Assembly (NCBI GenBank): GCA_965205185.1 | Contig: OZ242043.1 | Location: 661,584-725,583 of the forward strand | DNA: 64,000 bases | Origin: Dehalococcoidia bacterium | Lineage (GTDB): Bacteria > Chloroflexota > Dehalococcoidia > Lucifugimonadales > UBA3495 | Reading direction: 5' to 3' | Shown: piece after piece, positions 19,695 through 32,030 of the stretch | How positions within the stretch are numbered: position 1 is the first letter of the stretch | Layout: each line of letters starts with the position of its first letter | Notes under the pieces: model-generated | The model's input: only the letters and a program-made list of their open reading frames with translations | Databases searched by the model: none | Told to the model about the DNA's origin: nothing | Program-made: the position numbers and the translations under genes

Positions 19695-22600
19695 ATGGGG
19701 TTGGGATTTTGGTTTGGTTTTGGGGGGGTTATGGTTTTGGGGATTGGGTTGGATGGGGCTAATTTGGTGGCGGTGGAGTATTTGGGGAAGTTGCTGGAGC
19801 GGCATAGTGATGGCGGGTCGGAGAATGATATTCGGACGGCTTGGCGGGATTTTGTGGTGCGGACGGGGATTGTGGGGGATGAGCGGGAGATCAGCACTGA
19901 GGTGCCGCCGGGGGACGGGTCGGTGCGGCGGGTGGATTTGCGGGTGCGGAATACTTATGTGGAGTTCAAGAAGCAGATTTTTGTTAATGGGGCGGTGGAT
20001 GGGAAGTATGTTGAGCAGTTGGACGGGTATTTGCTTAAGGCTTTGCAGTCGGGTTGGGGGATACGGAACGGGATTCTTACGGATGGGAAGAATTATCTGA
20101 AGCGGGATATAGGGGAGCATATTCTGCCGTTGGTGAAGAATGCGCCGCGGGTTTGGCAGTATGCGGCGCAGGGGCCGAATCTGCGGGAGTATCTGCATGA
20201 TATTATTGCGGCGGAGGGGGAGGGGATTGCGCCGTCGGCGGAGACTTTGACTAAGCATTTGGGGATTGGTAGCGATTTGTTTCGGCAGGCGGCGGCGCTG
20301 TTGACGGATGCGCATAACCGGCATCGGGATAATTCGACGGTGGCGGTGAAGCGGAAGTTGTGGCGGGAATTGCTGGAGGTGGCGCTGGGGCAGGATTCGG
20401 CGGGGGATGCGGAAAGCGCGGATTATTTGTTTATCCGGCATACTTATTTGACGACGGTGGTTTCGTTGATCTTGCAGGCGCATTTCGGGATTGATGTGGC
20501 GGAGGAGGCGTACAAGAATCCGGGGGGGCTGCTGAACGGGGATGCTTTGTATGTGAAGACGGGGCTGAAGGGGGTTATTGAGTCGGATTTGTTTCAGTGG
20601 CCGGGGGAGGTTGGGGAATGGGAGTATGTTCGGGTGATTGCGGGGATGGCGATGCGGTTTGATTGGTCGGGGCGGGCGGAGGAGTTGGCGGCGACGTTGT
20701 ATCAGAATACGATCTTGCCGGAGGAGCGGCGGAAGATGGGGGAGTATTATACGCCGAAGTGGCTGGCGCGGGCGATTGTAGATGAGGTTGTGGGGGATCC
20801 GTTGGGTACGGTGGTGATGGATCCGGCTTGCGGGTCGGGGACTTTTATTGAGTGTATGGCGCAGCGGCTGATTGGGGCGGCGGAGGTTGCGGGGCTGGGA
20901 GCGGGGGAGACGCTGGAGCGGCTTTTGGGGAAGATTGTGGGGATAGATTTGCATCCGGTGGCGGTGCAGTTGGCGAAGGCGACTTGGGTTTTGAGTTGCC
21001 GGGAGGTGATTACGGCGGCGCGGGCGGCGGGGCATCGGGATGATATTACGCCGCCGGTGCGTTTGGGGGATTCGTTGCAATTGCGGTATGATCGGCGGAC
21101 GATTTTCAGCGGGGAGTATATTGTTTTGGCGACTAATGAGTTTTTGGATGGGGAGCGGTTGGTGTTTCAGGTGCCGATGTCGCTGGCGCGGCGGGCGGAT
21201 GTGTTCGGGCGGTTGTTGATGGAGTTGGCGCAGGCGGTGCAGCGGGGGCAGGATGGGGGGCGGGTGTTGGATATTTATGGGGCGGCGGAGGGGGCGGAGC
21301 GGGATGGTATGTCGCGGATTGCGGAGCAGATGGGGCGGCTGCATCGGGAGAATCGGGATCATGTTTGGGCTTATTATTTGCGTAATATGGTGCGGCCGGC
21401 GGTGATTGCGGAGGATAAGGCGGGGGCGATTGTGGGGAATCCGCCGTGGCAGACTTATAGCCGGAGCGCGGATATTGTGCGGGAGGAGTTGGAGAATCTA
21501 TGTAAGGATACTTATGGGATTTGGGCGGGGGGACGGCAGGCGCCGCATCAGGATGTGTCGGCGATGTTTTTTGCGCGGGTTGCGGATTTGTATCTGGAGG
21601 ATGGGGGGGTTATCGGGATGGTGTTGCCGCATAGCGCGTTGCGGACGGGGCAGCACTGGAAATGGCGGGGCGGGTATTGGCAGAGTCAACAAAAGAATAA
21701 TAGGACGGCGATTAGCGTCAATTTCCGGGTTAAGACGCCGTGGGATTTGGATCAGCTGGAGCCTAATACGTTTTTTCCGATGCCTTGTTCGGTGGTTTTT
21801 GCGGAACGGGCGGGGAAGTATTCGGATTTGGCGCAGGGGCGGAAGGATGCTCGGGGGCTGGCGCCGGGTTTGGTGGAGGTTTGGCGGGGGCCGACGGGTA
21901 CGGATCTGGTAGCTAGGGATGTTGAGCCGTTGCATCATGATGATGGGGAGTTTCATTCGCCTTATGCGGGGTTGTCGATGCAGGGGCCGTCCATTGTTGA
22001 CCGGCGTCTGTTTTTCGTTACTGCAAAGCCTAATGAAGGGTTGCTGGCGGTGCCGGATACTTATGTAACCAGTCCGCGAATCGGTGGTCAAGATAAGAAG
22101 CAGTACGATGTATCGGCGCTGGATGGGAATATCGTTCACGATGACAACCTTTTTGATGTGTATTTGGGGGAGTGCATTGCGCCTTATGTTGCGCTTACAC
22201 CGGCAAAGGCGGTGTTGCCGGTTAGCAAGGCTACTATGGTTATGCCGCTGGATCATTCCGATTGCCCGGAGGATGCAAAGACGGGGAAGGTCAAGCATAT
22301 CGCTTGCCGAGTCGATACGCTGGAGTTGGATGCGCGGATGCAGTATCGCTGGCCTGTGATGGAATCGCTTTGGGATGCAAACAAAGGGAAAAATGACGAT
22401 AAATCACTGATTCAAAGACTCAACTTTAACCGCAGTCTTACCACTCAATTGCGCTGGATGCGTCGTATGATGTCTAACCTGGATGAGACTCAGGACATCT
22501 TACCTGTTCGTATTGCGTATGCAGCAGCAGGGCGTCCGACGGCGGCACTTATCGAAAACAACCAAGCCATCATAGATTACAAGTGTTTCCAAGTATCATG

Positions 22601-22931
22601 CAAAAACCTGTCGGAGGCGTACTACTTGTTGGCAATAATCAACAGTATTACTTTAGAAACAAGCGCAATACCATTCAGGCCGAAAGGATTGTTCGGGGAA
22701 CGCGATCTCCAAAAGCATCTTTGGAAGTTGCCGATTCCGGGTTTTGACGGGGCGAATGGGTTGCACGTTAGGTTGTCGGAGTTGGGGATGGCGGCGGCGG
22801 GGGAGGCGCGGGAGTGGTTGGGGGAGTTGGGGGCGGGTCGGGAGCGGGCGGCGCTGCGGGGCGGGTGGCAGCGGGAAAGCCCCACGGCTCGGGGGATTGA
22901 GGTGGGGGTGGGGGAGTTGCTGGGAGGGTGA
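19695..22931 (+). CDS. type IIG/IIL restriction-modification enzyme (MmeI-like: N-terminal nuclease + gamma-class N6-adenine methyltransferase + C-terminal specificity region)
   Basis: N-terminal D-X8-E-X-K motif (RRVDLRVRNTYVEFKK), motif I VVMDPACGSGTF and motif IV IVGNPPWQTY. About 1070 aa. ATG at 19695 or 19731. Confidence 0.85.
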   Translation: MGLGFWFGFGGVMVLGIGLDGANLVAVEYLGKLLERHSDGGSENDIRTAWRDFVVRTGIVGDEREISTEVPPGDGSVRRVDLRVRNTYVEFKKQIFVNGAVDGKYVEQLDGYLLKALQSGWGIRNGILTDGKNYLKRDIGEHILPLVKNAPRVWQYAAQGPNLREYLHDIIAAEGEGIAPSAETLTKHLGIGSDLFRQAAALLTDAHNRHRDNSTVAVKRKLWRELLEVALGQDSAGDAESADYLFIRHTYLTTVVSLILQAHFGIDVAEEAYKNPGGLLNGDALYVKTGLKGVIESDLFQWPGEVGEWEYVRVIAGMAMRFDWSGRAEELAATLYQNTILPEERRKMGEYYTPKWLARAIVDEVVGDPLGTVVMDPACGSGTFIECMAQRLIGAAEVAGLGAGETLERLLGKIVGIDLHPVAVQLAKATWVLSCREVITAARAAGHRDDITPPVRLGDSLQLRYDRRTIFSGEYIVLATNEFLDGERLVFQVPMSLARRADVFGRLLMELAQAVQRGQDGGRVLDIYGAAEGAERDGMSRIAEQMGRLHRENRDHVWAYYLRNMVRPAVIAEDKAGAIVGNPPWQTYSRSADIVREELENLCKDTYGIWAGGRQAPHQDVSAMFFARVADLYLEDGGVIGMVLPHSALRTGQHWKWRGGYWQSQQKNNRTAISVNFRVKTPWDLDQLEPNTFFPMPCSVVFAERAGKYSDLAQGRKDARGLAPGLVEVWRGPTGTDLVARDVEPLHHDDGEFHSPYAGLSMQGPSIVDRRLFFVTAKPNEGLLAVPDTYVTSPRIGGQDKKQYDVSALDGNIVHDDNLFDVYLGECIAPYVALTPAKAVLPVSKATMVMPLDHSDCPEDAKTGKVKHIACRVDTLELDARMQYRWPVMESLWDANKGKNDDKSLIQRLNFNRSLTTQLRWMRRMMSNLDETQDILPVRIAYAAAGRPTAALIENNQAIIDYKCFQVSCKNLSEAYYLLAIINSITLETSAIPFRPKGLFGERDLQKHLWKLPIPGFDGANGLHVRLSELGMAAAGEAREWLGELGAGRERAALRGGWQRESPTARGIEVGVGELLGG

Positions 22932-22940
22932 CGCCGGGTG

Positions 22941-23123
22941 CATCCTTCGACAAGCTCAGGATGAATGGGGGGGGACAGGCTCAGGATGAAATGGGGGTTT
23001 ACCCCCACCCTAACCCTCCCCCTTAGGGGGAGGGGATTTTGGGTTCTTGGGGGTGGGGGATTTTGGAGTTGGGAGCGGGATTTGGGGGGCGCCCAATTCA
23101 TCCTGAGCTTGTCGAAGGATGAA
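22941..23123. repeat. repeat cluster (family 2, family 1, family 2) downstream of the R-M gene
   Basis: Family 2 CATCCTTCGACAAGCTCAGGATGAATG at 22941-22967. Family 1 CCCCCACCCTAACCCTCCCCCTTAGGGGGAGGGGATTTT at 23002-23040. Family 2 TTCATCCTGAGCTTGTCGAAGGATGAA at 23097-23123. Confidence 0.9.
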
Positions 23124-23152
23124 TTGGGGTTGGGTTGGGCTGGGCTGGGGGG

Positions 23153-24001
23153 TTAGTTCATTTCGGAGCCGCCGGATACGCTGATGGATAGGCCGGTTAG
23201 GTAGTCGGATTCGGGGGAGGCTAGGTAGGCGGCGGTTTTGGCGATGTCGGTTGGGTCGGCGATGCGGCCTAGGGGGATGCGTAGGGCGCGGTCGGCGACC
23301 ATGCCGGCGCGGTATTCCTCGGGGGATTCGCCTTGGGGGGCGAGGGCGGCGGCGATGAAGTCGACGCGTTCGGTGTCGACCAGGCCGGGGCAGATGGCGT
23401 TTACGTTGATGCGGTGGGGGGCGAGTTCTTGGGCGAGGGCTTGGGTGAAGCCGATGACGGCGAATTTGGAGGCGCAGTAGGCGGCGTAGCGGGCGATGCC
23501 GCGTTTGCCGGCGCCGGAGGAGATGTTGATGATTTTGCCGCCGCCGCCGCGGGTGGTCATGTGTCGGGCGACGGCGCGGGATGCGAGGTAGGTGCCGCGG
23601 ACGTTGACGCGGATGACTTCGTCGAAGGCGGTTTCGTCGAGTTCGATTACGGGGACGCGGTCTTTGCCGGGGCGGGAGCCGGCGTTGTTGACTAGGATGT
23701 CGATGCGTCCGAATTGGTCTAGGGTTTGGGTGATCATTTGGTCGACTTGGGCGGAGTCGGAGACGTCGGAGAAGATGGGGAGGGATTGTTGGCCGAGTTG
23801 CTGGATTTCTTGGGCGACGGAGGTTAGGCCCTGCCAGCCGGTTTGTTGGTCTTGGGGGCGGATGGCGTTGAGGCTTTGGGGGATGTCGGTGATGGCGAGG
23901 TGGGCGCCTTCGGCGGCGAGGCGGAGGGCGATGGCGCGGCCGATGCCGTGGCGTCCGCCGGCGCCGGTGACGAGGGCGATTTTGTCTTGTAGGTGGTACA
24001 T
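23153..24001 (-). CDS. SDR-family oxidoreductase
   Basis: 282 aa from ATG 24001. It has TGAGGRHGIG, NNAG and the YxxxK motif (YCASK). The 693-aa track ORF is an artefactual extension. Confidence 0.9.
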   Translation of the reverse strand: MYHLQDKIALVTGAGGRHGIGRAIALRLAAEGAHLAITDIPQSLNAIRPQDQQTGWQGLTSVAQEIQQLGQQSLPIFSDVSDSAQVDQMITQTLDQFGRIDILVNNAGSRPGKDRVPVIELDETAFDEVIRVNVRGTYLASRAVARHMTTRGGGGKIINISSGAGKRGIARYAAYCASKFAVIGFTQALAQELAPHRINVNAICPGLVDTERVDFIAAALAPQGESPEEYRAGMVADRALRIPLGRIADPTDIAKTAAYLASPESDYLTGLSISVSGGSEMN

Positions 24002-24036
24002 AGTTTGGTCCTTTTGGGTGGTTTTGGGGGTTGGGG

Positions 24037-24900
24037 TTAGGCGGTTTGGCGGCGTTGGGTGATGGTGGTTGTGGTTTGTTTCCAGGCTAGGGTTAGGATG
24101 AATAGGGTGAAGGCGACGAGGGCCATAACGGGGCCGGAGGGTAGGTTGAAGTAGTAGGAAAGATACAGTCCGGCGATGCCGGATGCAACCCCTAGTAGGG
24201 CGGCGGCGATCATAGCGGTGGGGACGCTGCGGGTGATTTGGAGGGCGGCGGCGGCGGGGGTGATGAGGAGGGAGATGACGAGGATGACGCCGATGGCCTG
24301 GAGGGCGATGACGATGACGAGGGCGAGGATGGTGAGGAGGAGGTATTCGAGTTTGTCGGTGGGGAGTCCGGCGACGGAGGCGCCGGTGGGGTCGAAGTTG
24401 GCGAAGATGAGTTCTTTGTGGAGGGCGGCGAGGGTGAGGAGGACGGCGGCGGCGACGGCGAGGGCGGCGTACATTTCGTTTTGGGAGACGCCGAGGATGT
24501 TGCCGAGGAGGATGTCTTCGATATTGACTTGGATGTTGACGCCCTGGTCGGCGGCGATGCTGATCATGATGATGCCGGCGGCGAAGAGGGCGGCGAAGAG
24601 GATGCCGATGGAGGTGTCTTCGGGGAGGTTGGCGCGTTTGATGAGCCAGCCGCCGGTGAGGGCCATGAAGATGGCCATGGGGATGGCGCCGAGGTAGAGG
24701 ACGACGCCGATGATGGCGGCGGCGACGATGCCGGGGAGTACGGAGTGGGCGAGGCCGTCGCTCATGAAGCCTAGTCCGCGGGTTACTACGTAGATGCCGG
24801 CGATGGGGCACATTATGCCGACGGTGATGGCGATGATTAGGGCGCGGATCATGAAGGCGTATTGGAAGGGGGTGGTTAGGGCTTCGGTTAGGGTTTCCAT
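24037..24900 (-). CDS. metal ABC transporter permease (ABC-3 / ZnuB-MntB family)
   Basis: 287 aa, polytopic. It has a typical N-terminus (FMIRALIIAITVGIMCPIAGIYVVTRGLGFMSDGLAHSVLPG). Confidence 0.9.
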   Translation of the reverse strand: METLTEALTTPFQYAFMIRALIIAITVGIMCPIAGIYVVTRGLGFMSDGLAHSVLPGIVAAAIIGVVLYLGAIPMAIFMALTGGWLIKRANLPEDTSIGILFAALFAAGIIMISIAADQGVNIQVNIEDILLGNILGVSQNEMYAALAVAAAVLLTLAALHKELIFANFDPTGASVAGLPTDKLEYLLLTILALVIVIALQAIGVILVISLLITPAAAALQITRSVPTAMIAAALLGVASGIAGLYLSYYFNLPSGPVMALVAFTLFILTLAWKQTTTTITQRRQTA

Positions 24901-25035
24901 TTTTTGGGCGGCCTCCGGGTGGGGGTTTTGGGTTTTGGGTTGGGGGTCTGGGTTTTGGGGGGTTCACCCCCACCCTAACCCTCCCCCTTAGGGGGAGGGA
25001 ATAAGATCGTAGCGGGAATAATACGATGGCGGGGG

Positions 25036-25866
25036 TTAGGATGGGTTGGAGTTGGGGTTGGGGTGGTGGCCGTGTTGGTCGCCGGCTGGGTGGTGGCCGT
25101 GTTGGTCGCCGGCTAGGTTGTGGCCGTGGGTGGGGATGGCGCCGAAGGGGCCGTATAGTTGGGTGATTAGGGCTTCGGTTAGGACTTCGTGGGGGGGGCC
25201 GCAGGCGCAGACGTTGCAGTTGAGGCAGAGGCATTCGTCGCAGTAGTGGGCCATGTGGTTGAGGTCGTGGGAGGACATCATGATGGTGCGGCCGTCGTCA
25301 CGGAGTTCCATTAGGATGGACATTAGGGCGGATTGGGAGGCTAGGTCGACGCCGCTGAAGGCTTCGTCGAGGAGGATGATGTCGGCTTCTTGGGTTAAGG
25401 CGCGGGCGACGAAGATGCGTTGGCGTTGTCCGCCGGATAGTTCGTAGATTAGGGATTTGCGGCGTTCCCACATACCGACGCGGCGGAGGGCTAGTTCGGC
25501 GGCGGCGCGGTCTTGGCGGTTGGGGAGTCGGAGCCAGCCGGTGCGGCGGATGCGGCCTTGCATGACGACGTCTTGGGCGCTCATGGGGAAGCGGCGGTTG
25601 AGTCTTTCGTATTGTGGGACGTAGGCGACGGCGCCGCGGGTTTGGTTGAGGGGTTTGCCGTGGATGAGGATGCGGCCGGAGGTGGGTTGGGTTAGGGCGG
25701 TGATTACGTTGAAGAGGGTGCTTTTGCCGGCGCCGTTGGGGCCGACGACGCCCATTAGGCAGCCGGGGCCGGCGCTGAAGGTTACTTGGTCGAGGATTCG
25801 GACGCCGCCGAATTCGACGGTTAGGGCTTCGGCGGCTAGGGGTGGGGCGGTGGGGGCGGCAGGCAT
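25036..25866 (-). CDS. metal ABC transporter ATP-binding protein with His-rich C-terminal tail
   Basis: Walker A GPNGAGKST, signature LSGGQRQR and Walker B ILLDEA. The tail NLAGDQHGHHPAGDQHGHHPNPN is encoded by a direct DNA duplication. Confidence 0.9.
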   Translation of the reverse strand: MPAAPTAPPLAAEALTVEFGGVRILDQVTFSAGPGCLMGVVGPNGAGKSTLFNVITALTQPTSGRILIHGKPLNQTRGAVAYVPQYERLNRRFPMSAQDVVMQGRIRRTGWLRLPNRQDRAAAELALRRVGMWERRKSLIYELSGGQRQRIFVARALTQEADIILLDEAFSGVDLASQSALMSILMELRDDGRTIMMSSHDLNHMAHYCDECLCLNCNVCACGPPHEVLTEALITQLYGPFGAIPTHGHNLAGDQHGHHPAGDQHGHHPNPNSNPS

Positions 25867-26007
25867 AGTTATGGCAACCCCTTGGTGGTGGTTGGGGGTA
25901 TTTGTGCGCTGGCGGCCGCCGGCAGGGGCGGCGGGGCGGGTGGGTTATGGCGATGTCGGGGTGATGTGGGCGCCGGCCGGGGCTTGCCGGCCGGCGCCGC
26001 CGATGGG

Positions 26008-28275
26008 TTAGCGCAGGGCGCCGACGATGGTATTGGTGTTGCTGCGCATCATATCGATGTAGGTGCCGGCGTCGCTGCCGGGGGAGCCTAGGGAGCCGGT
26101 GTAGAGTCCGCCGACTAGGTTGGCGTTGGTGGCATCGGCGATGAGCTGGGCGAAGCGGGTGCTGTGGGACCTTTCGGTGAATACGGCGGGGGCGTTTTCG
26201 TGTTCGATGGTTTCGATGAGGGATTCGAGGTCTTGGGCGGTGGGTTCGACGTCGGTGGAGATGGAGGGGATGACGGCGCCGACGACTTCGTAGCCGTAGC
26301 GGTTGGCGAAGTATTGGAAGGCGTCGTGGGAGGTTACGAGGAGGCGGCGCTCTTGGGGCAGGGAGTCGGTTTGTTCCTGGATCCAGGTGTGGAGGTTGTC
26401 GAGTTCCTGGTTGTAGGCGTAGGCGTTGTCGCGGTAGAAGTTTTGGTTGGCGGGGTCGAGTTCGGATAGCAGGGTTTCGATGTCGTTGACGGCTTGTTTG
26501 ACGCGGAGGGGGTCGAACCAGAAGTGGGGGTCGAGTTCGCCTTCGTGGGCGTGGGCGTCCTCGGCTTCGGCGGCGTGTTCGTCGTCCTCGGCTTCGGCGG
26601 CGGCGCCGGTGATGCCGACGAAGGCGATGCGGACGGGGGTGCCGGCGATGTCCCATTGGTCGACGACTTCGAGGTCGTGGAAGTCGAGCTGGAGTACTTG
26701 GCCGCCTACGGAGTCGGTGATGAAGATGGCGTCTGGGGCGGTGGCGATGTTGGGGCGGGCCCAGAAGCCGGGTTCGATGGGTTCGGTTAGGAAGCCGGAT
26801 GCGGTGGCTAGGAGGTCGAGGTCGTGGGCGTCGTACATTCGGAGTTCGCCGTCGCTCATTAGGACGAGGAGGTGTTCGCCGTCGTGGCTGAGGGCGGTGC
26901 TGATGGGGTTGAGGGTTTCGGTGGCGGGGATGATTTGTTCCATAACGCCGTCCTCGGGTTCGATGATGTAGAGGCCGACGGATCCGCCGAAGCCGAAGAA
27001 GTGGTGGAGGGCGGGGTGGCCCCAGATGGTGCCGAGGCGGAAGTCGTCGGGGGAGCCGGCGGGGGGTTCGATGAAGCCGCCGGAGTATTGTCCGTCGTGG
27101 GCTTCGAGGTACATTGCGCCGCCGATGCAGCCGAAGACGGCGGTTTCGCCGTTGCCGGCGTCGCCGTGGAGTCCGGGGCAGCGCTCGAGGCTATAGAGGG
27201 ATGTGCCGATGATGTCGACGATTTCGGCGCCGATGGGGAGGATGTAGTCGCGGTTTTCGGTGTCTGGGGTGTAGTCGGGGTGCTGGATGCTGACGGCGAA
27301 GAGGTCGTCGTCCATTGGGACGGCGGCGCCGTGGTGGGGGCCGGCGTTGATGCGGGGTGGGGAGTAGTCGCTGCCTAGTTCCTCGAGTTGGTGTTCGTTG
27401 AGCATCACGATGTCGCCGGAGCCGTCGTAGAAGATGGCGGACCATTCTTTGCCGACGACGAGGTGGACGGGGCGGTCGCCGGAGAGGTCGATGTCCAGTT
27501 GGGATATGGGATCTTCGACGAGGTCGGGGTGTCCTTCGTGATCTTCGAGGTAGATGCCGCCGTCGAAGAGGTGGACGGTGTTGGCGTCGGTGGCTACAGC
27601 GATGGCGTAGCGGCCGGATTTGGTGGGGTAGATGCGACCGGCGCGGGCGCCGAGGTCGAAGGCGTCTTGTTGGACTTCGTGATCTTCGAGGTTGATGACG
27701 GACATTGCGCCGGTTTCGCCGTCGCCGATTAGGAGGCGGCCGTGGAGGGGTGCGGCGGGTTCCTCGAAGATTTCGGCGAATTCGAGGGGGTCGACGGCTT
27801 CGCCGAGGTGGGTTAGGGCGTTGGGGTTTTGGGCGGCGTTGCGGAGGAGGTCGTCGAGCCAGGCGGCTTCGAGGGAGAGGCCGATGCTTAGGACGAGGTC
27901 GGCGTCGGCGACGCGGGCGATGTCTTGGGCGCCGGGCTGGTAGGTATGGGGGTCGGCGTTGGGGGGCAGGAGGGGCAGGACGTCGACCCGGTCTTGGCCG
28001 ACGGCGCGGGCCCAGTCGGCGATGATGTTGGTGGTGGTTACGATGCTGAGTTTTTGCTGGGGTTCGGGTTCGGGGGTGGCGGTGGCGGGCGCGGTGGTGG
28101 GTTGGGCGACGGGGGCGGTGGGGGCGACGGCGGCAGCGGTAGCGGGGGCGGCGGCAGTGGCGGCGGGGGAGGTTTGGGCGGTGGGGGTGGGCGAGTCGCT
28201 GCCGCAAGCGACGGCGAGCATTAGGGTTGCGAGGGTTAGGAGGGCGGCGATGGGGATTAGCAGTTTTCGGGTCAT
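26008..28275 (-). CDS. ZnuA/TroA-type metal-binding lipoprotein with a ~380-aa inserted beta-propeller-like (AztD-like) domain
   Basis: Lipobox LAVAC. The cluster-9 SBP N-lobe (SIVTTTNIIADWARAV..NADPHTYQP) and C-lobe (DPHFWFDP..LVTSHDAFQYFANRYG) are separated by aa ~175-557 (nt 26605-27753). That segment is rich in H/D motifs such as EDHEGHPD and GPHHG. Confidence 0.85.
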   Translation of the reverse strand: MTRKLLIPIAALLTLATLMLAVACGSDSPTPTAQTSPAATAAAPATAAAVAPTAPVAQPTTAPATATPEPEPQQKLSIVTTTNIIADWARAVGQDRVDVLPLLPPNADPHTYQPGAQDIARVADADLVLSIGLSLEAAWLDDLLRNAAQNPNALTHLGEAVDPLEFAEIFEEPAAPLHGRLLIGDGETGAMSVINLEDHEVQQDAFDLGARAGRIYPTKSGRYAIAVATDANTVHLFDGGIYLEDHEGHPDLVEDPISQLDIDLSGDRPVHLVVGKEWSAIFYDGSGDIVMLNEHQLEELGSDYSPPRINAGPHHGAAVPMDDDLFAVSIQHPDYTPDTENRDYILPIGAEIVDIIGTSLYSLERCPGLHGDAGNGETAVFGCIGGAMYLEAHDGQYSGGFIEPPAGSPDDFRLGTIWGHPALHHFFGFGGSVGLYIIEPEDGVMEQIIPATETLNPISTALSHDGEHLLVLMSDGELRMYDAHDLDLLATASGFLTEPIEPGFWARPNIATAPDAIFITDSVGGQVLQLDFHDLEVVDQWDIAGTPVRIAFVGITGAAAEAEDDEHAAEAEDAHAHEGELDPHFWFDPLRVKQAVNDIETLLSELDPANQNFYRDNAYAYNQELDNLHTWIQEQTDSLPQERRLLVTSHDAFQYFANRYGYEVVGAVIPSISTDVEPTAQDLESLIETIEHENAPAVFTERSHSTRFAQLIADATNANLVGGLYTGSLGSPGSDAGTYIDMMRSNTNTIVGALR

Positions 28276-28367
28276 GGCAGGTTCTCTTTTCTCCTTGATT
28301 TGGGTTTTGGGGGCTGGGTATCTTAATCAGGCTGGCAGATTTTGATTTGAGCGCCAGGGGTTTAATT

Positions 28368-28440
28368 AAGATTAGGTATCAATATGGGTTAGATAACGAT
28401 ATTTAGTATCGATATGGGTTGGATAACGATATTTAGTCTC
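28368..28440. promoter_or_regulatory. three 30-bp-phased operator-like boxes upstream of the binding-protein gene
   Basis: A ~30-bp unit is repeated 3 times. Each unit carries a 13-mer: AAGATTAGGTATC (28368-80), GATATTTAGTATC (28398-410) and GATATTTAGTCTC (28428-40). These resemble the palindrome GATACTTTGTATC in the Fur-family gene promoter (28941-53). Confidence 0.4.
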
Positions 28441-28460
28441 AATTTGGGTCAAAAAAGATA

Positions 28461-28913
28461 CTAGGCGGCGGCGGGGGTGGGTTGGGCGCATTGGCGGCAG
28501 CGTCCGTAGACTTCGAGCCAGTGTCCGCTTAGTTCGAAGCCGTGGCGGGCGGAGGTGGTGGTTAGGACGTCTTCGATGTCGCAGCCGGTGAGGTCTTGGG
28601 AGGCGCCGCAGTGGACGCATAGTAGGTGGTGGTGGTGTCCGGGGTGGCTTAGTTGGTAGTGGAGGTCGCCGTCCTCGAGCATTACGCGGCAGAGGACGCC
28701 GGATTCGACGAGGATTTTGAGGGTGCGGTAGACGGTGGCGCGGCCGATGGCGGGGGGTAGCTGGCGGCGGAGGGTTTCGGCGGTGAAGTGTCGTTGCTGG
28801 CTGCCGATGATGGCGGCGAGGGTGCGGCGGGGGGCGGTGGAGCGGTAGCCGCGTTCCTCGAGGGTTTCGAGGATTTGGTCGGCGGCGGATGGGGTTCGTT
28901 TTTTCAGGGGCAT
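28461..28913 (-). CDS. Fur-family metalloregulator (Zur-like by context)
   Basis: 150 aa. It has a winged helix (GRATVYRTLKILVESGVL), an HHHH LLCVHCG motif and a C-terminal CRQC. Confidence 0.85.
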   Translation of the reverse strand: MPLKKRTPSAADQILETLEERGYRSTAPRRTLAAIIGSQQRHFTAETLRRQLPPAIGRATVYRTLKILVESGVLCRVMLEDGDLHYQLSHPGHHHHLLCVHCGASQDLTGCDIEDVLTTTSARHGFELSGHWLEVYGRCRQCAQPTPAAA

Positions 28914-28940
28914 TGTGGTTTCTCTGGGCGGGATAGTTTT

Positions 28941-28990
28941 GATACTTTGTATCTAATGGGTATTATAGGGGGGCGGGATGGGGTTGTCAA
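28941..28990 (-). promoter_or_regulatory. sigma70-type promoter of the Fur-family gene with palindromic operator
   Basis: On the minus strand: TTGACA (28990-28985), a 17-nt spacer, TATAAT (28967-28962), then the palindrome GATAC-AAA-GTATC (28953-28941) before the start codon. Confidence 0.6.
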
Positions 28991-29037
28991 TGGGGTTTTT
29001 TGGGGGATCTTGATTTGGCGGGGGGGTGTTTGGGGGG

Positions 29038-29925
29038 CTAGTGTGCGCCGGCGGGGGGCCAGGGATTGTGGGGGGACAGGACTTGGGAGAGCTGGGTGAA
29101 GGCGCCCATAAATCCGGCGGGGTGGAGCCAGATGCTGTTGAAGTCGGGGTTGGCGTAGTTGGGGGTTTGGCGGGAGGTGGTGAATCGGGCGCCTTGGGCG
29201 GATAGGTGGGCGTCCATGGCGAGGGAGTCGGCGATTTGGTAGATGGTCAGGTAGAGGCCCTCGCCGTAGCGGTGGAGGAATTTTTGGGACGGGGCGTCGG
29301 GGGCGGTGGGCTGGGCGAGTTCGATGAAGGTGTCGCGGGCGGTCAGGGGGATTACGGCGATTTCCAAGCCGGTGAAGCTAGTGTGAAAGCGTTGGGTGGG
29401 TTGCAGGTTGAACATATCGTCCCATTGTTGGATGGCTTGGTCCAGGCTGCGGACTAGGATGGCGATTTGGCGCAGGCGGGGGGTTGCAGGGGGTTGGGTT
29501 TGGGGGCGGGGGGTGTTGTTGTCGGGGGCGCCGTCGGGGGCGGTTTCGATGATGCGGAGTTGCGCTCCGTGGGTTTGGGCGGGGTTGGGGGTGATGGCGC
29601 GGGGGGCGGCGGTGGGGGCTGGGGCGGTGAATTGGATGCCGGTTTGGGTTAGGCGGGACATTACGGGGGTTAGATCGGGGGTTTCGAGGGTTAGCTGGTA
29701 GGGGCCTTGGCCGCGGGTTTGGCGGTAGGGGGCGGATTGGGGGTCGTCGGGGGCGGGCTGCCAGAGTTGTATGGTGGCGCGGTCGCCGGCGGGGAGGATG
29801 GCGCGGGGGCCGTTGGGGGTGTTTTGGATGTGCTGGGTGGGTAGTTTTAGGTGGGTTTGGTAGAGTTGGGTTGCTTGGTTTAGGTTGTTTACTATGAAGG
29901 TGATTTGTTGGATTTGGTTTAGCAT
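29038..29925 (-). CDS. two-domain VOC (glyoxalase/epimerase-like) family protein
   Basis: Two beta-alpha-beta-beta-beta-like halves (QITFIVNNLNQATQLY..; IAILVRSLDQAIQQW..YGEGLYLTIYQI). Confidence 0.65.
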   Translation of the reverse strand: MLNQIQQITFIVNNLNQATQLYQTHLKLPTQHIQNTPNGPRAILPAGDRATIQLWQPAPDDPQSAPYRQTRGQGPYQLTLETPDLTPVMSRLTQTGIQFTAPAPTAAPRAITPNPAQTHGAQLRIIETAPDGAPDNNTPRPQTQPPATPRLRQIAILVRSLDQAIQQWDDMFNLQPTQRFHTSFTGLEIAVIPLTARDTFIELAQPTAPDAPSQKFLHRYGEGLYLTIYQIADSLAMDAHLSAQGARFTTSRQTPNYANPDFNSIWLHPAGFMGAFTQLSQVLSPHNPWPPAGAH

Positions 29926-30180
29926 ATTTGCTCCGGGGCCCCCACCCTAACCCTCCCCCTCGGGGGGAGGGGATTTTGTTGGTTTTGGGGTTCATCCTTC
30001 GACAAGCTCAGGATGAATGCCGGGGGGAGTTCGGGATGAGTGCCGGGGGCAAGTTCGGGATGATTGGGGGGTGGGGATGCGGGATTGGGGTAATGGGTTG
30101 GCGAGGGGGTATGGGCGGGTTGTTGGCGCCTATCCCTTGATGGCAAGGGGGCGGTTTCTACAGTGGCGGGCGGCGTTGCG

Positions 30181-30603
30181 TTATGGGCGGGGGGGTAGGG
30201 AGATGGTGGCTTTGCCGGCGGCGTGGCGCTCGTTTTGGGGGCCTAGCATTAGGATGTCGCATTCGGCTAGGTTTTGGCCGTTTTCTTGGCGTAGGTCGGT
30301 GATGGTGGCTTCGATGGTTAGGGGGCGGTTGTGGGGGATGGGTTGGCGGAATACTACGTCGAGGTCTTGGACGGCGTTGGGGCCGGCCCAGTCGGTTAGG
30401 AGTTGGGCCATCATGGCCAGGGCCATTATGCCGGGGACTATGGGGCCGTCCATGCCGGAGTCGCGGGCGGTTTGGGGGTCGGTGAAGCGGTTGGGGGTCG
30501 GGGGGGACCAGACTTGGCAGAAGCGGGCTACGTTTTCGGTGGTGGCGGTGGTTTGGAGGGGGCCTATTTGGTCGCCTAGTTCGATGTCGTCGAAGTATGG
30601 CAT
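30181..30603 (-). CDS. MaoC-like (R)-hydratase hot-dog protein
   Basis: 140 aa containing FTDPQTARDSGMDGPIVPGIMALAMMAQLL. Confidence 0.8.
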   Translation of the reverse strand: MPYFDDIELGDQIGPLQTTATTENVARFCQVWSPPTPNRFTDPQTARDSGMDGPIVPGIMALAMMAQLLTDWAGPNAVQDLDVVFRQPIPHNRPLTIEATITDLRQENGQNLAECDILMLGPQNERHAAGKATISLPPRP

Positions 30604-30765
30604 TGTTCCTCGCGGGTTGGGGTGGGGTGGGGGGTATGGGCGGCTCGGGTAATTTGGGGGATGGCGATTTTTTCTTGCGGGTTGGGTTGGGTTTTTGCGG
30701 GTTGATGGGCTACTAGAATAATCCCGCGGATGGCATTGTTCCTCGCGGGGCGGGGCGGGTTGGGG

Positions 30766-31215
30766 TTATTGGCGGCGGGCGAAGGATTCTTGGACTTCGG
30801 CGACGGTTTGGCCGTTTTGGTTTTGGAAGGTGGTTTCCCAGACGATGAATATCATGGTGCCGGAGCGGCCGGTTTTGGCGTAGACGTCTTTTAGGCGGGA
30901 GGAGGCGGTTAGGGTGTCGCCGGGGTGGATGGGGGCGATGGGCTGGATGCGCTGGCCGGCGTGCATTTGGGCGCGTCCGAAGTCGAGGCCGATGTCGGGG
31001 AGTTGGACTTCGCGGACGAATAGGGAGCATAGGGTCGGGGGGGCGATTTGACGGGGGAAGCCTTGTTCTTGGGCGGCGGCGTCGGAGTGGAAGGCGGGGT
31101 GGCGCTCGTTGAGGCTGGCGTTGAGGGCGGCGAGGAGGTCGGGGGTGATGGGGAAGGGGCCGGCGCGGTGTTCTTTTTGGTGGAGGGTGCGGTCGTAGTT
31201 CAGTTGCATGGCCAT
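30766..31215 (-). CDS. MaoC N-terminal-like dehydratase hot-dog protein (HadA-like partner)
   Basis: 149 aa. It is adjacent to the MaoC gene and has a hot-dog fold pattern (PGDTL..SSRLKDVYAKTGRSGTMIFIVWETTF). Confidence 0.7.
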   Translation of the reverse strand: MAMQLNYDRTLHQKEHRAGPFPITPDLLAALNASLNERHPAFHSDAAAQEQGFPRQIAPPTLCSLFVREVQLPDIGLDFGRAQMHAGQRIQPIAPIHPGDTLTASSRLKDVYAKTGRSGTMIFIVWETTFQNQNGQTVAEVQESFARRQ

Positions 31216-31258
31216 CGGGCTGCTCCGGTTTTGGCGCTGATTTTTGGGTTTGTGGGGG

Positions 31259-31918
31259 TTAGGCGGTGGGGACTTGGGCGGTTTCCGCTAGGCGGACGGG
31301 GCGGAATTGTTGGTTGAGGAGGGCGTCTACTAGCTGGGTTTCGTTGGTTATGGGGGCGGGGAATTGGGTTAGGCAGGCGGCGATGTGGCTGGTTAGGTGG
31401 GCGTCGCTGCCGCCGATGCCCAGGTAGCCGAATTGTTGGCAGAGTTCCTCGGCTCTTTCGTTTTCGCCGGGGCGTCCGCCGCCGTTGAGGATTTCTACGA
31501 TGCGGATGCCGGGGAAGGTTTCGCCTTGCTGGATGTATTCGGTGAGGCCGATGCCGAAGCGGCCGGGGTGGGCGGGGATGGCGATGGCGTGGTGCTGGCG
31601 GGCGGCCTGGATTAGGTCGCGGGCGTCCATGGTTACGTCGGCGAAGTTTATTTCGCGGGTTAGGGGCGGGGTTACGCCGTAGACTAGGAAGTGGCCGTGG
31701 CGGGTGTCGAGTTCGGAGGCTTTTAGGATTAGGACGTTGTTTTGCTGGGCTAGGGCGGAGTAGTCGTGGTCGATGTCGAATTTGCGGTGTTCGGTGAGGA
31801 CGAAGCCGTCGACGGTGTGGCCGCGTTTGCGGAGGACTTGGATCCATTTGACGTATTGGTCTACGGTGGCGCGGGAGTCGTCGGAGGAAACGGAGTGGGA
31901 GTGGAGGTCTAGAAACAC
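31259..31918 (-). CDS. PHP-domain metal-dependent phosphoesterase
   Basis: GTG start. It has the FLDLHSHS motif, later TEH, and PAHP and GGSDAH motifs. Confidence 0.75.
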   Translation of the reverse strand: MFLDLHSHSVSSDDSRATVDQYVKWIQVLRKRGHTVDGFVLTEHRKFDIDHDYSALAQQNNVLILKASELDTRHGHFLVYGVTPPLTREINFADVTMDARDLIQAARQHHAIAIPAHPGRFGIGLTEYIQQGETFPGIRIVEILNGGGRPGENERAEELCQQFGYLGIGGSDAHLTSHIAACLTQFPAPITNETQLVDALLNQQFRPVRLAETAQVPTA

Positions 31919-32030
31919 TTGGGCGAACTCCTGTATTCGGCGGGGGGATGGGGTTGGGGTTTGGGGGGTATGATATACGGGGATGGTGGATTGGGCAAGC
32001 GTTGGGGGGGAATTGGGCGGCCGGGGGCGG

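Follow-up and report, generated by a model that had tools for sequence, protein, structure and literature searches.

The analyzed window is a stretch of 64,000 nucleotides from contig OZ242043.1 of a Dehalococcoidia bacterium (assembly GCA_965205185.1), in which positions are counted from the first letter. A single stop-free open reading frame (ORF) at positions 26008..28275 of the minus strand encodes a protein of 755 amino acids (aa), herein referred to as P0001. This protein contains both lobes of a substrate-binding lipoprotein of the AztC type and, nested between them, a β-propeller of the AztD type. In the AztABCD system of Paracoccus denitrificans, AztC and AztD are separate proteins, the binding protein being the client and AztD its zinc chaperone. 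The parts of P0001, the adjoining transporter and regulator genes, and a repeat region upstream of the gene are listed in Table 1.

Table 1. The fused gene, its parts, and its surroundings. Positions are those of the window, and aa numbers are those of P0001; pLDDT, predicted local distance difference test; ABC, ATP-binding cassette.
Feature	Positions	Strand	Evidence
Whole gene, P0001: AztC-type substrate-binding lipoprotein with nested AztD domain	26008..28275	-	Single ORF; Pfam ZnuA match of 271 bits in two stretches; NCBIfam AztC and AztD matches
Signal peptide and lipobox, aa 1-24 (...LMLAVAC; Cys24)	28204..28275	-	Read from the sequence; Ala23 and Cys24 kept in at least 90% of 30 homologues
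Pro/Thr/Ala-rich spacer, aa 25-74, presumed stalk between lipid anchor and folded domains	28054..28203	-	Low complexity; length varies among homologues
Binding-protein N-lobe, aa 75-165, with first metal ligand His110 (NADPH)	27781..28053	-	Pfam ZnuA positions 1-85; aligned to TroA His68; His110 invariant (69/69)
Linker 1, aa 166-177; here EIFEEPAAPL, then His178	27745..27780	-	pLDDT below 50; family median 24 aa, 57% Asp/Glu/His
AztD-type eight-bladed β-propeller, aa 178-556	26608..27744	-	NF038015, PDB matches, Foldseek, ligand mapping, conservation
Linker 2, aa 557-579, acidic/His D-loop remnant with H567 and H575-x-H577-x-G579	26539..26607	-	pLDDT below 50; H575, H577, and G579 invariant (69/69)
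Binding-protein C-lobe, aa 580-755, with ligands His584 (DPHFW) and His650 (TSHD); Gly727 at the Asp279 position	26011..26538	-	Pfam ZnuA positions 86-262; TroA alignment; conservation
ABC transporter ATPase with His-rich C-terminal tail (GDQHGHHP twice)	25036..25866	-	MntA, AztA, and anchored-repeat ATPase models, all below curated cut-offs
ABC transporter permease, best model AztB	24037..24900	-	NF040871, E 3.5e-58, 197 bits, below cut-off of 280
Fur-family metalloregulator (candidate Zur), directly upstream on the same strand	28461..28913	-	Fur, PerR, and Zur models, all below cut-off
Three tandem 30-bp AT-rich repeats, candidate operator, between regulator and binding-protein genes	28371..28460	.	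Sequence repeats

Among Pfam families, only ZnuA (PF01297) matches the protein, with a score far above the cut-off of 29 bits. In a whole-genome profile search, this profile is cut at a single point: positions 1-85 align before the insert and positions 86-262 after it. Both predicted lobes superpose on the structure of holo AztC (5W57) with a template modeling (TM) score of 0.86 in Foldseek. An earlier note, made from the sequence of this DNA, had described the lobes of a normal substrate-binding protein around an insert of about 380 aa, and both the split profile and the superposition agree with this description. The boundaries proposed there (26605-27753, aa 175-557) are borne out by three independent and concordant estimates: the NCBIfam AztD model covers aa 185-553, phmmer alignments with the AztD chains of the PDB cover aa 179-577, and purpose-built hidden Markov models (HMMs) place the insert at aa 178-556. 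All the motifs quoted for the insert are present, namely LIGDGETGAMSVINL (aa 182-196), IYLEDHEGHPDL (aa 241-252), GPHHG (aa 312-316), and EAHDG (aa 391-395), as are the stretches AEAEDDEHAAEAEDAHAHEGE (aa 560-580) and DPHFWFDP (aa 582-589).

The sequence matches, the predicted fold, and the conservation of every published zinc ligand and of the disulfide pair support the assignment of the insert as a complete AztD-type propeller. The AztD model NF038015 is matched with an E-value of 3.4e-34 along model positions 3-354 of 356; the score of 118 bits is below the curated cut-off of 400 bits of this narrow "exception" model. The only PDB sequences matched by the insert in a phmmer search were the AztD chains of Citrobacter koseri (6CMK/6N01) and P. 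denitrificans (6CK1), with E-values of about 1e-30. In an AlphaFold2 model of the protein, built with 121 homologues, the mean pLDDT is 86 and the predicted TM score (pTM) is 0.59. The propeller (aa 178-556) is mostly above a pLDDT of 90, both lobes are confident, and values below 50 are confined to the linkers (aa 168-175 and 558-579) and to a loop of the C-lobe (aa 670-676). The AztD crystal chains (6CMK/6N01/6CK1) are the nine best Foldseek matches of the model, with TM scores of 0.83-0.87 and E-values of 1e-28 to 1e-30. The AztD-like β-propeller proposed in the earlier note is thus supported by the near full-length HMM match, by a predicted fold like that of the AztD crystal structures between lobes of AztC-like fold, and by the retained zinc ligands and disulfide pair. 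A generic propeller of the PQQ, WD40, or YVTN type was also considered and rejected: the next propeller after the nine AztD matches, 1L0Q, has a TM score of only 0.51, and all the AztD ligands are kept.

Conservation was counted in an alignment of P0001 with 68 relatives at 40-65% identity, and all counts are given out of these 69 sequences. Site 2 of P. denitrificans AztD (PdAztD), formed by H99, H102, and D104 (PMC6689063), corresponds in a HMMER alignment to H246, H249, and D251 of P0001. These residues form an H-x-x-H-x-D hairpin that is invariant (69/69). The ligands of site 1 in the central pore, H124, H167, and H218 in PdAztD, correspond to H271, H315, and H370, which are kept in 69, 66, and 66 sequences, respectively. 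The disulfide between C214 and C231 of PdAztD corresponds to C366 and C383, and both Cys residues are found in all 69 sequences. In the binding-protein lobes, the predicted metal ligands His110, His584, and His650 are invariant too. The same is true for the motif HxHG-x-DPH (H575-x-H577-x-G579-x-x-DPH584), which is shared with the unfused AztC of Dehalococcoidia. The invariance of the metal ligands and of the loop remnant therefore points to strong purifying selection on both metal centers and on this remnant.

The insertion point is the His-rich loop of the binding protein, called the D-loop in AztC. The earlier note had placed the insert just before an acidic/His stretch. An acidic/His linker is indeed found downstream of the insert; the loop as a whole does not simply lie downstream, since in most relatives the propeller splits it into two His/Asp/Glu tracts. 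Both linkers are disordered in the model. Across 74 proteins, the median length is 24 aa for linker 1 and 25 aa for linker 2, and Asp, Glu, and His make up 57-66% of the residues. The copy in the window is the His-poor extreme of the family, its first tract being nearly gone (EIFEEPAAPL) and its linker 2 containing three His residues. These linkers probably act as low-affinity zinc antennae and as hinges that free the propeller during permease docking. Site 2 has no free C-terminus in this arrangement, and its fourth ligand may be a linker-2 His (H567 in P0001, H562/H565 in relatives).

The fourth ligand of the binding protein differs from that of the characterized proteins. The metal is bound by H68, H133, H199, and D279 in TroA, and the ligands of AztC include H138, H204, and D279. 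In P0001, the Asp position is occupied by Gly727 (codon 26095-26097), which aligns with Asp279 without gaps (LYTGSLG versus LFSDAMG). This position is Gly in 54 of the 69 sequences and Asp in 6, and it falls into a 4-aa deletion in 9; the four-ligand set His/His/His/Asp is thus absent from P0001. The Asp is kept in the unfused Dehalococcoidia AztC, and a second lineage of fused proteins (see below) has Asp in four members and Glu in one (P0191). The loss of the Asp in the main fused clade suggests either a ZnuA-like site with three His or a fourth ligand provided by the propeller or the linker.

The separate proteins of Paracoccus have been analyzed biochemically. Zinc passes to AztC from site 2 of AztD only, the D-loop of AztC and its His residues are essential for this transfer, complex formation is a slow, rate-limiting, and concentration-dependent step, and the N- and C-terminal strands of AztD build the extension that carries site 2 (PMC6689063; PMC7463823). 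No role in transfer is known for site 1, for which a storage or tuning function has been proposed (PMC6689063).

By analogy with these proteins and from the sequence features described above, P0001 is predicted to be an extracytoplasmic zinc receptor that is anchored to the membrane and unites chaperone and client in one polypeptide, with the propeller passing zinc intramolecularly; we assign this reading a probability of about three in four. In the proposed mechanism, the propeller would capture Zn2+ at site 2, formed by H246, H249, and D251 together with a linker-2 His in place of the C-terminal His408 of Paracoccus AztD, and site 1 in the pore would serve as a second, tuning or storage site. 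The AztD termini, spliced into the D-loop beside the metal cleft, would hold site 2 next to H110, H584, and H650. The topology argues for this position at the cleft mouth, because the AztD termini form the site-2 extension and both of them join the D-loop just before the His of the DPH motif. Insertion into the D-loop is also consistent with the published docking model of AztD and AztC. Zinc would then move within one molecule, replacing the bimolecular association that limits the separate Paracoccus proteins. Chloroflexota are thought to lack an outer membrane, and in such a bacterium the fusion would keep the chaperone from diffusing away. Owing to the flexible linkers, the propeller could move out of the way when the loaded binding protein docks on the permease.

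In total, 855 matches to the protein were found in 5.8 billion proteins. The best 120 of them have lengths of 687-815 aa and identities of 58-96%, and more than 120 of the 855 are full-length homologues of 690-815 aa. When one genome per species was scanned, 80 loci were found, nearly all labelled Dehalococcoidia, SAR202, or Chloroflexota, and several of them from bins of sponge symbionts. Using our own HMMs for the three parts, the N-lobe, AztD, and the C-lobe were found in one frame in 74 of these loci; one more locus contains two tandem AztD domains, and five are split by frameshifts. Among 401 evenly sampled Dehalococcoidia genomes, an AztD match was found in 55 genomes from 13 of the 223 genera, and open frames of 760-870 aa account for about 55 of the 64 matches. 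In an even sample of the whole phylum, members of the class included, seven genomes have an AztD match. Three of these genomes do not belong to the class, and a fused gene is present in at least one of them. The architecture that the earlier note had seen in a single protein is thus common in Dehalococcoidia/SAR202.

Both fused and separate forms of AztD were found. One Dehalococcoidia genome (G160) has a gene for an AztC-like protein of 308 aa with a short loop (…GHRHGEWDPH…) and the Asp kept; an aztD gene is located about 1 kb downstream on the same strand. Such an unfused pair of aztC and aztD in Dehalococcoidia is likely to be the ancestral state. Stand-alone AztD lipoproteins were also found in several genomes of the class. 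In a tree of AztD domains (89 rows), the fused proteins together with seven stand-alone proteins form a clade with a support of 100/98. The stand-alone proteins are nested within this clade; they include those of the Dehalococcoidia family f24, the protein of locus L087, and two Binatia proteins. At E <= 1e-10, 384 members of the AztD family were found among 1.84 billion cluster representatives. The best 150 of these 384 include 11 complete fusions, 2 double (or split) AztD proteins, and 11 fusion-compatible fragments, distributed over at least three separate parts of the tree. A second fused lineage, found in metagenome contigs only (P0164, P0174, P0179, P0191, and P0209), reaches much higher scores against the canonical AztD model, 226-243 bits. 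A single origin of the fusion is unsupported: the fused label requires at least 5 changes on the 89-row tree and at least 11 on a tree of 150 rows, numbers to be read as upper estimates because some metagenomic "stand-alone" representatives may be truncated fragments. Judging from these sequences, insertion into this loop appears to have happened, or to have been undone, repeatedly.

Several related proteins contain AztD in other combinations. Two tandem AztD propellers in the loop of a binding protein of 1218 aa were found at locus L086 (3683-7336, minus strand; genome G142) and in P0141. The repeat period at L086 is 1227 nucleotides (nt), of which at least 300 nt are 100% identical, and this doubling is either a very recent in-frame duplication or an artefact of long-read assembly. 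P0209, a protein of 895 aa from a JGI metagenome, consists of the N-lobe, ZinT (PF09223), AztD, and the C-lobe, i.e., it has two zinc-chaperone domains in one loop. AztD and ZinT are also joined in P0229 (1077 aa), which has no binding protein. The eukaryotic protein P0151 (KAJ9458053.1) from Diplonema papillatum, named "Histidine-rich membrane protein KE4-like" at its source, is 2432 aa long and contains five AztD-like propellers followed by a ZIP domain (PF02535, aa 2114-2422). In metagenome-assembled genomes of Candidatus Binatia (L067, 4807-8139, plus strand, and L080), AztD domains 59-65% identical to the Dehalococcoidia insert were found without binding-protein lobes, pointing to misbinned sequences or to a propeller that has been transferred laterally. 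In P0138, which is related to the Binatia AztDs, AztD is joined to "anchored repeat" surface domains (choice-of-anchor M, TIGR03773, and TIGR03769). A cobW/CobW_C gene of the COG0523 type is located directly upstream of the gene for the second-lineage fused protein P0191 (L092, 4687-5700, plus strand).

In about 90 loci related to that of the window, a Fur-family gene is located upstream in about half and transporter genes are located downstream in about 40%. At the 3' end of the ATPase gene in the window (25036-25120), a His-rich repeat, …GDQHGHHPAGDQHGHHPNPNSNPS, was found, which may be a cytoplasmic metal-sensing tail. No second AztD and no second His-loop binding protein were found in the same genome. 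Besides P0001, this genome encodes a single cluster A-I protein, an ordinary one of 334 aa without a His-rich loop (L094, 2632-3636, minus strand; G000:C1:580131-581135). The gene for this protein has no adjoining ABC genes and is followed by three near-identical paralogues with Glu/Ala/Gln-rich repeat tails. On the plus strand of window positions 22000-32000, the guanine-cytosine skew is very strong irrespective of the genes present, with values of +0.31 to +0.52 in stretches of 500 nt from position 22500 onward.

The single-chain reading presupposes that the gene itself is real. The long ORF could be an artefact, in which two or three genes (the N-terminal part of aztC, aztD, and the C-terminal part of aztC) were joined by a frameshift in sequencing or assembly; indeed, the five split loci (L040, L051, L053, L059, and L069) demonstrate that frameshifts or pseudogenes do occur in such long-read assemblies. 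This explanation is, however, contradicted by the one-frame architecture of 74 independent loci in different genomes at 40-65% identity, by the many full-length homologues, and by the single break in the ZnuA profile. Moreover, half of a binding protein would be unable to fold alone, whereas the predicted lobes build the normal AztC fold. A frameshift or mis-assembly was thus rejected on comparative grounds, its probability being practically negligible, and the claim of the earlier note that this is a single gene, for which it had named a frameshift as a possible refutation, holds. Several observations weigh against the functional part of the reading. The best NCBIfam model for the binding-protein part is AztC (NF040870, matched in two stretches), but the score of 271 bits is under the equivalog cut-off of 350, and the Deinococcus manganese MntC model comes nearly level at 229 bits. 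By sequence, this part is AztC-like without reaching the AztC equivalog score, and the scores of AztA and AztB, like those of AztC and AztD, are under the curated equivalog cut-offs. In about 40 of the 90 related loci, no transporter genes were found within 6 kb. In the published model of the hand-off, zinc is released when Asp279 binds and drives off the last AztD ligands; as Asp279 is replaced by Gly here, the final transfer step cannot be exactly the published one. At a pTM of 0.59, the model does not fix how the propeller is oriented towards the binding protein or where site 2 lies with respect to the binding site. A propeller of 380 aa beside the cleft might also hinder docking on the permease, and both metal specificity and zinc transfer in the fused members we infer by analogy.

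Some of these observations would be expected if the propeller were kept but handed nothing over, serving instead as a store or buffer of zinc at the surface, as a zinc-sensing enlargement of the His-loop that gates docking, or as a module for other zinc proteins. They include the loss of the Asp in 54 of 69 sequences, the many fused genes that are not beside a transporter, and the lack of a fixed interface in the model, to which the storage or tuning role proposed for site 1 can be added (PMC6689063). Nevertheless, such a function appears unlikely to us, as site 2, the HxH remnant of the D-loop, and the three His of the binding protein are all invariant, the insertion always occupies the loop on which transfer depends and has arisen in several separate AztD lineages, and the topology puts site 2 at the mouth of the cleft. 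A further explanation is that the imported metal is not zinc but manganese, iron, or another divalent cation, and that the propeller has been adapted to it. The Deinococcus MntC and MntA models score near or above the Azt models, the regulator fits the Fur and PerR models better than Zur, and the binding protein of known structure closest to this one, TroA, accepts several metals. Manganese-specific cluster A-I relatives, such as PsaA, have a His/His/Glu/Asp site, whereas the site here is His/His/His. Additionally, all the zinc ligands of AztD are kept, His/Asp/Glu-rich loops mark the zinc-specific members (PMC7858048), and relatives pair AztD with ZinT or ZIP or adjoin a cobW/COG0523 gene. 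Because of this three-His site, the retained AztD sites, the His/acidic loop, and these fusions and neighbor, zinc is preferred as the substrate, and a different metal is rather improbable. Intramolecular transfer of zinc from the propeller to the binding protein is therefore retained as the preferred reading.

The protein can be compared with several known systems. With AztABCD of P. denitrificans (AztC, 5W56/5W57; AztD, 6CK1; C. koseri AztD, 6CMK/6N01), it shares both folds, both AztD sites, the disulfide pair, the three His ligands, a His-containing D-loop by the DPH motif, and an operon with an AztB-like permease, an ATPase, and a Fur-family regulator. In contrast to AztABCD, it is one chain with AztD nested in the D-loop, it is a lipoprotein of a bacterium thought to have no outer membrane, its AztD part is only 25-28% identical to the crystallized proteins, and Gly stands in place of Asp279. 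Furthermore, the chain runs on as a His/acidic linker where site 2 of AztD has the free C-terminal His408. AdcA of Streptococcus pneumoniae (7JJ9) is likewise a zinc lipoprotein that is covalently joined to a zinc-recruiting domain and has a His-rich loop (PMC7858048). However, its lipocalin-like ZinT domain is C-terminal and connected by an 11-aa linker, whereas in P0001 the AztD propeller is inside the loop. The AdcA model NF033605 matches only the binding-protein part of P0001, with 87 bits against a cut-off of 700, and a Pfam search of P0001 revealed no ZinT match, i.e., no AdcA-type C-terminal ZinT domain.

ZnuA, which works with a free ZinT, has a flexible His/acidic loop at the same position, and this loop was proposed to reach the zinc site of the partner (PMC6689063). 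ZnuA, however, has the loop alone, and its equivalog model scores 81 bits here against a cut-off of 268. In the "anchored repeat" binding proteins of Actinobacteria, a curated cluster A-I family (TIGR03772), the lobes are separated by some 185 additional profile positions (about 121-305). The site is the same as here, judging from profile coordinates and not from structure; the additional stretch is matched by a choice-of-anchor-M/TIGR03769 surface-protein domain, which is unrelated to AztD. Thus, the fusion of a binding protein with a zinc chaperone is known in principle from AdcA, and the version with AztD in the D-loop is undescribed as far as we could find. No AztC-AztD fusion is described in the literature found on AztD, and only two Chloroflexi sequences were included in a 2019 survey. 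The statement of the earlier note that it had not seen this architecture described therefore stands; in databases, the proteins are named just "ZnuA" or "hypothetical protein." Hundreds of them carry only such labels because Pfam has no AztD model.

A broader interpretation can be put forward tentatively, as a possibility with the odds against it. In evolution, the His-rich loop may have served cluster A-I zinc-binding proteins as a general socket for whole zinc-capture domains, with AztD as a portable module. This would fit the presence of a single AztD, a double AztD, or ZinT with AztD in the same loop, the TIGR03772 insert at the same place, the joining of five AztD propellers to ZIP, and the changes (at least 11) between fused and free states. 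In the main Dehalococcoidia clade, a His of site 2 or of the linker could then replace the lost Asp, which would represent a trapped state of the hand-off with a shared ligand. If true, this state would be the hand-off intermediate that has escaped capture in the separate proteins.

Direct transfer of zinc between proteins outside the cytoplasm is known from very few systems, and the complex of AztD and AztC exists only as a docking model. A natural single chain fixes both the stoichiometry and the proximity of the two partners, and it offers a stable object for crystallography, cryo-electron microscopy, and hand-off kinetics. The published geometry involves the D-loop and places site 2 and the AztD termini at the cleft, and the insertion point supports it independently. 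The fusion also illustrates how bacteria thought to have no outer membrane can retain a chaperone at the cell surface, and it points to strong zinc-scavenging pressure in marine and sponge-associated SAR202/Dehalococcoidia.

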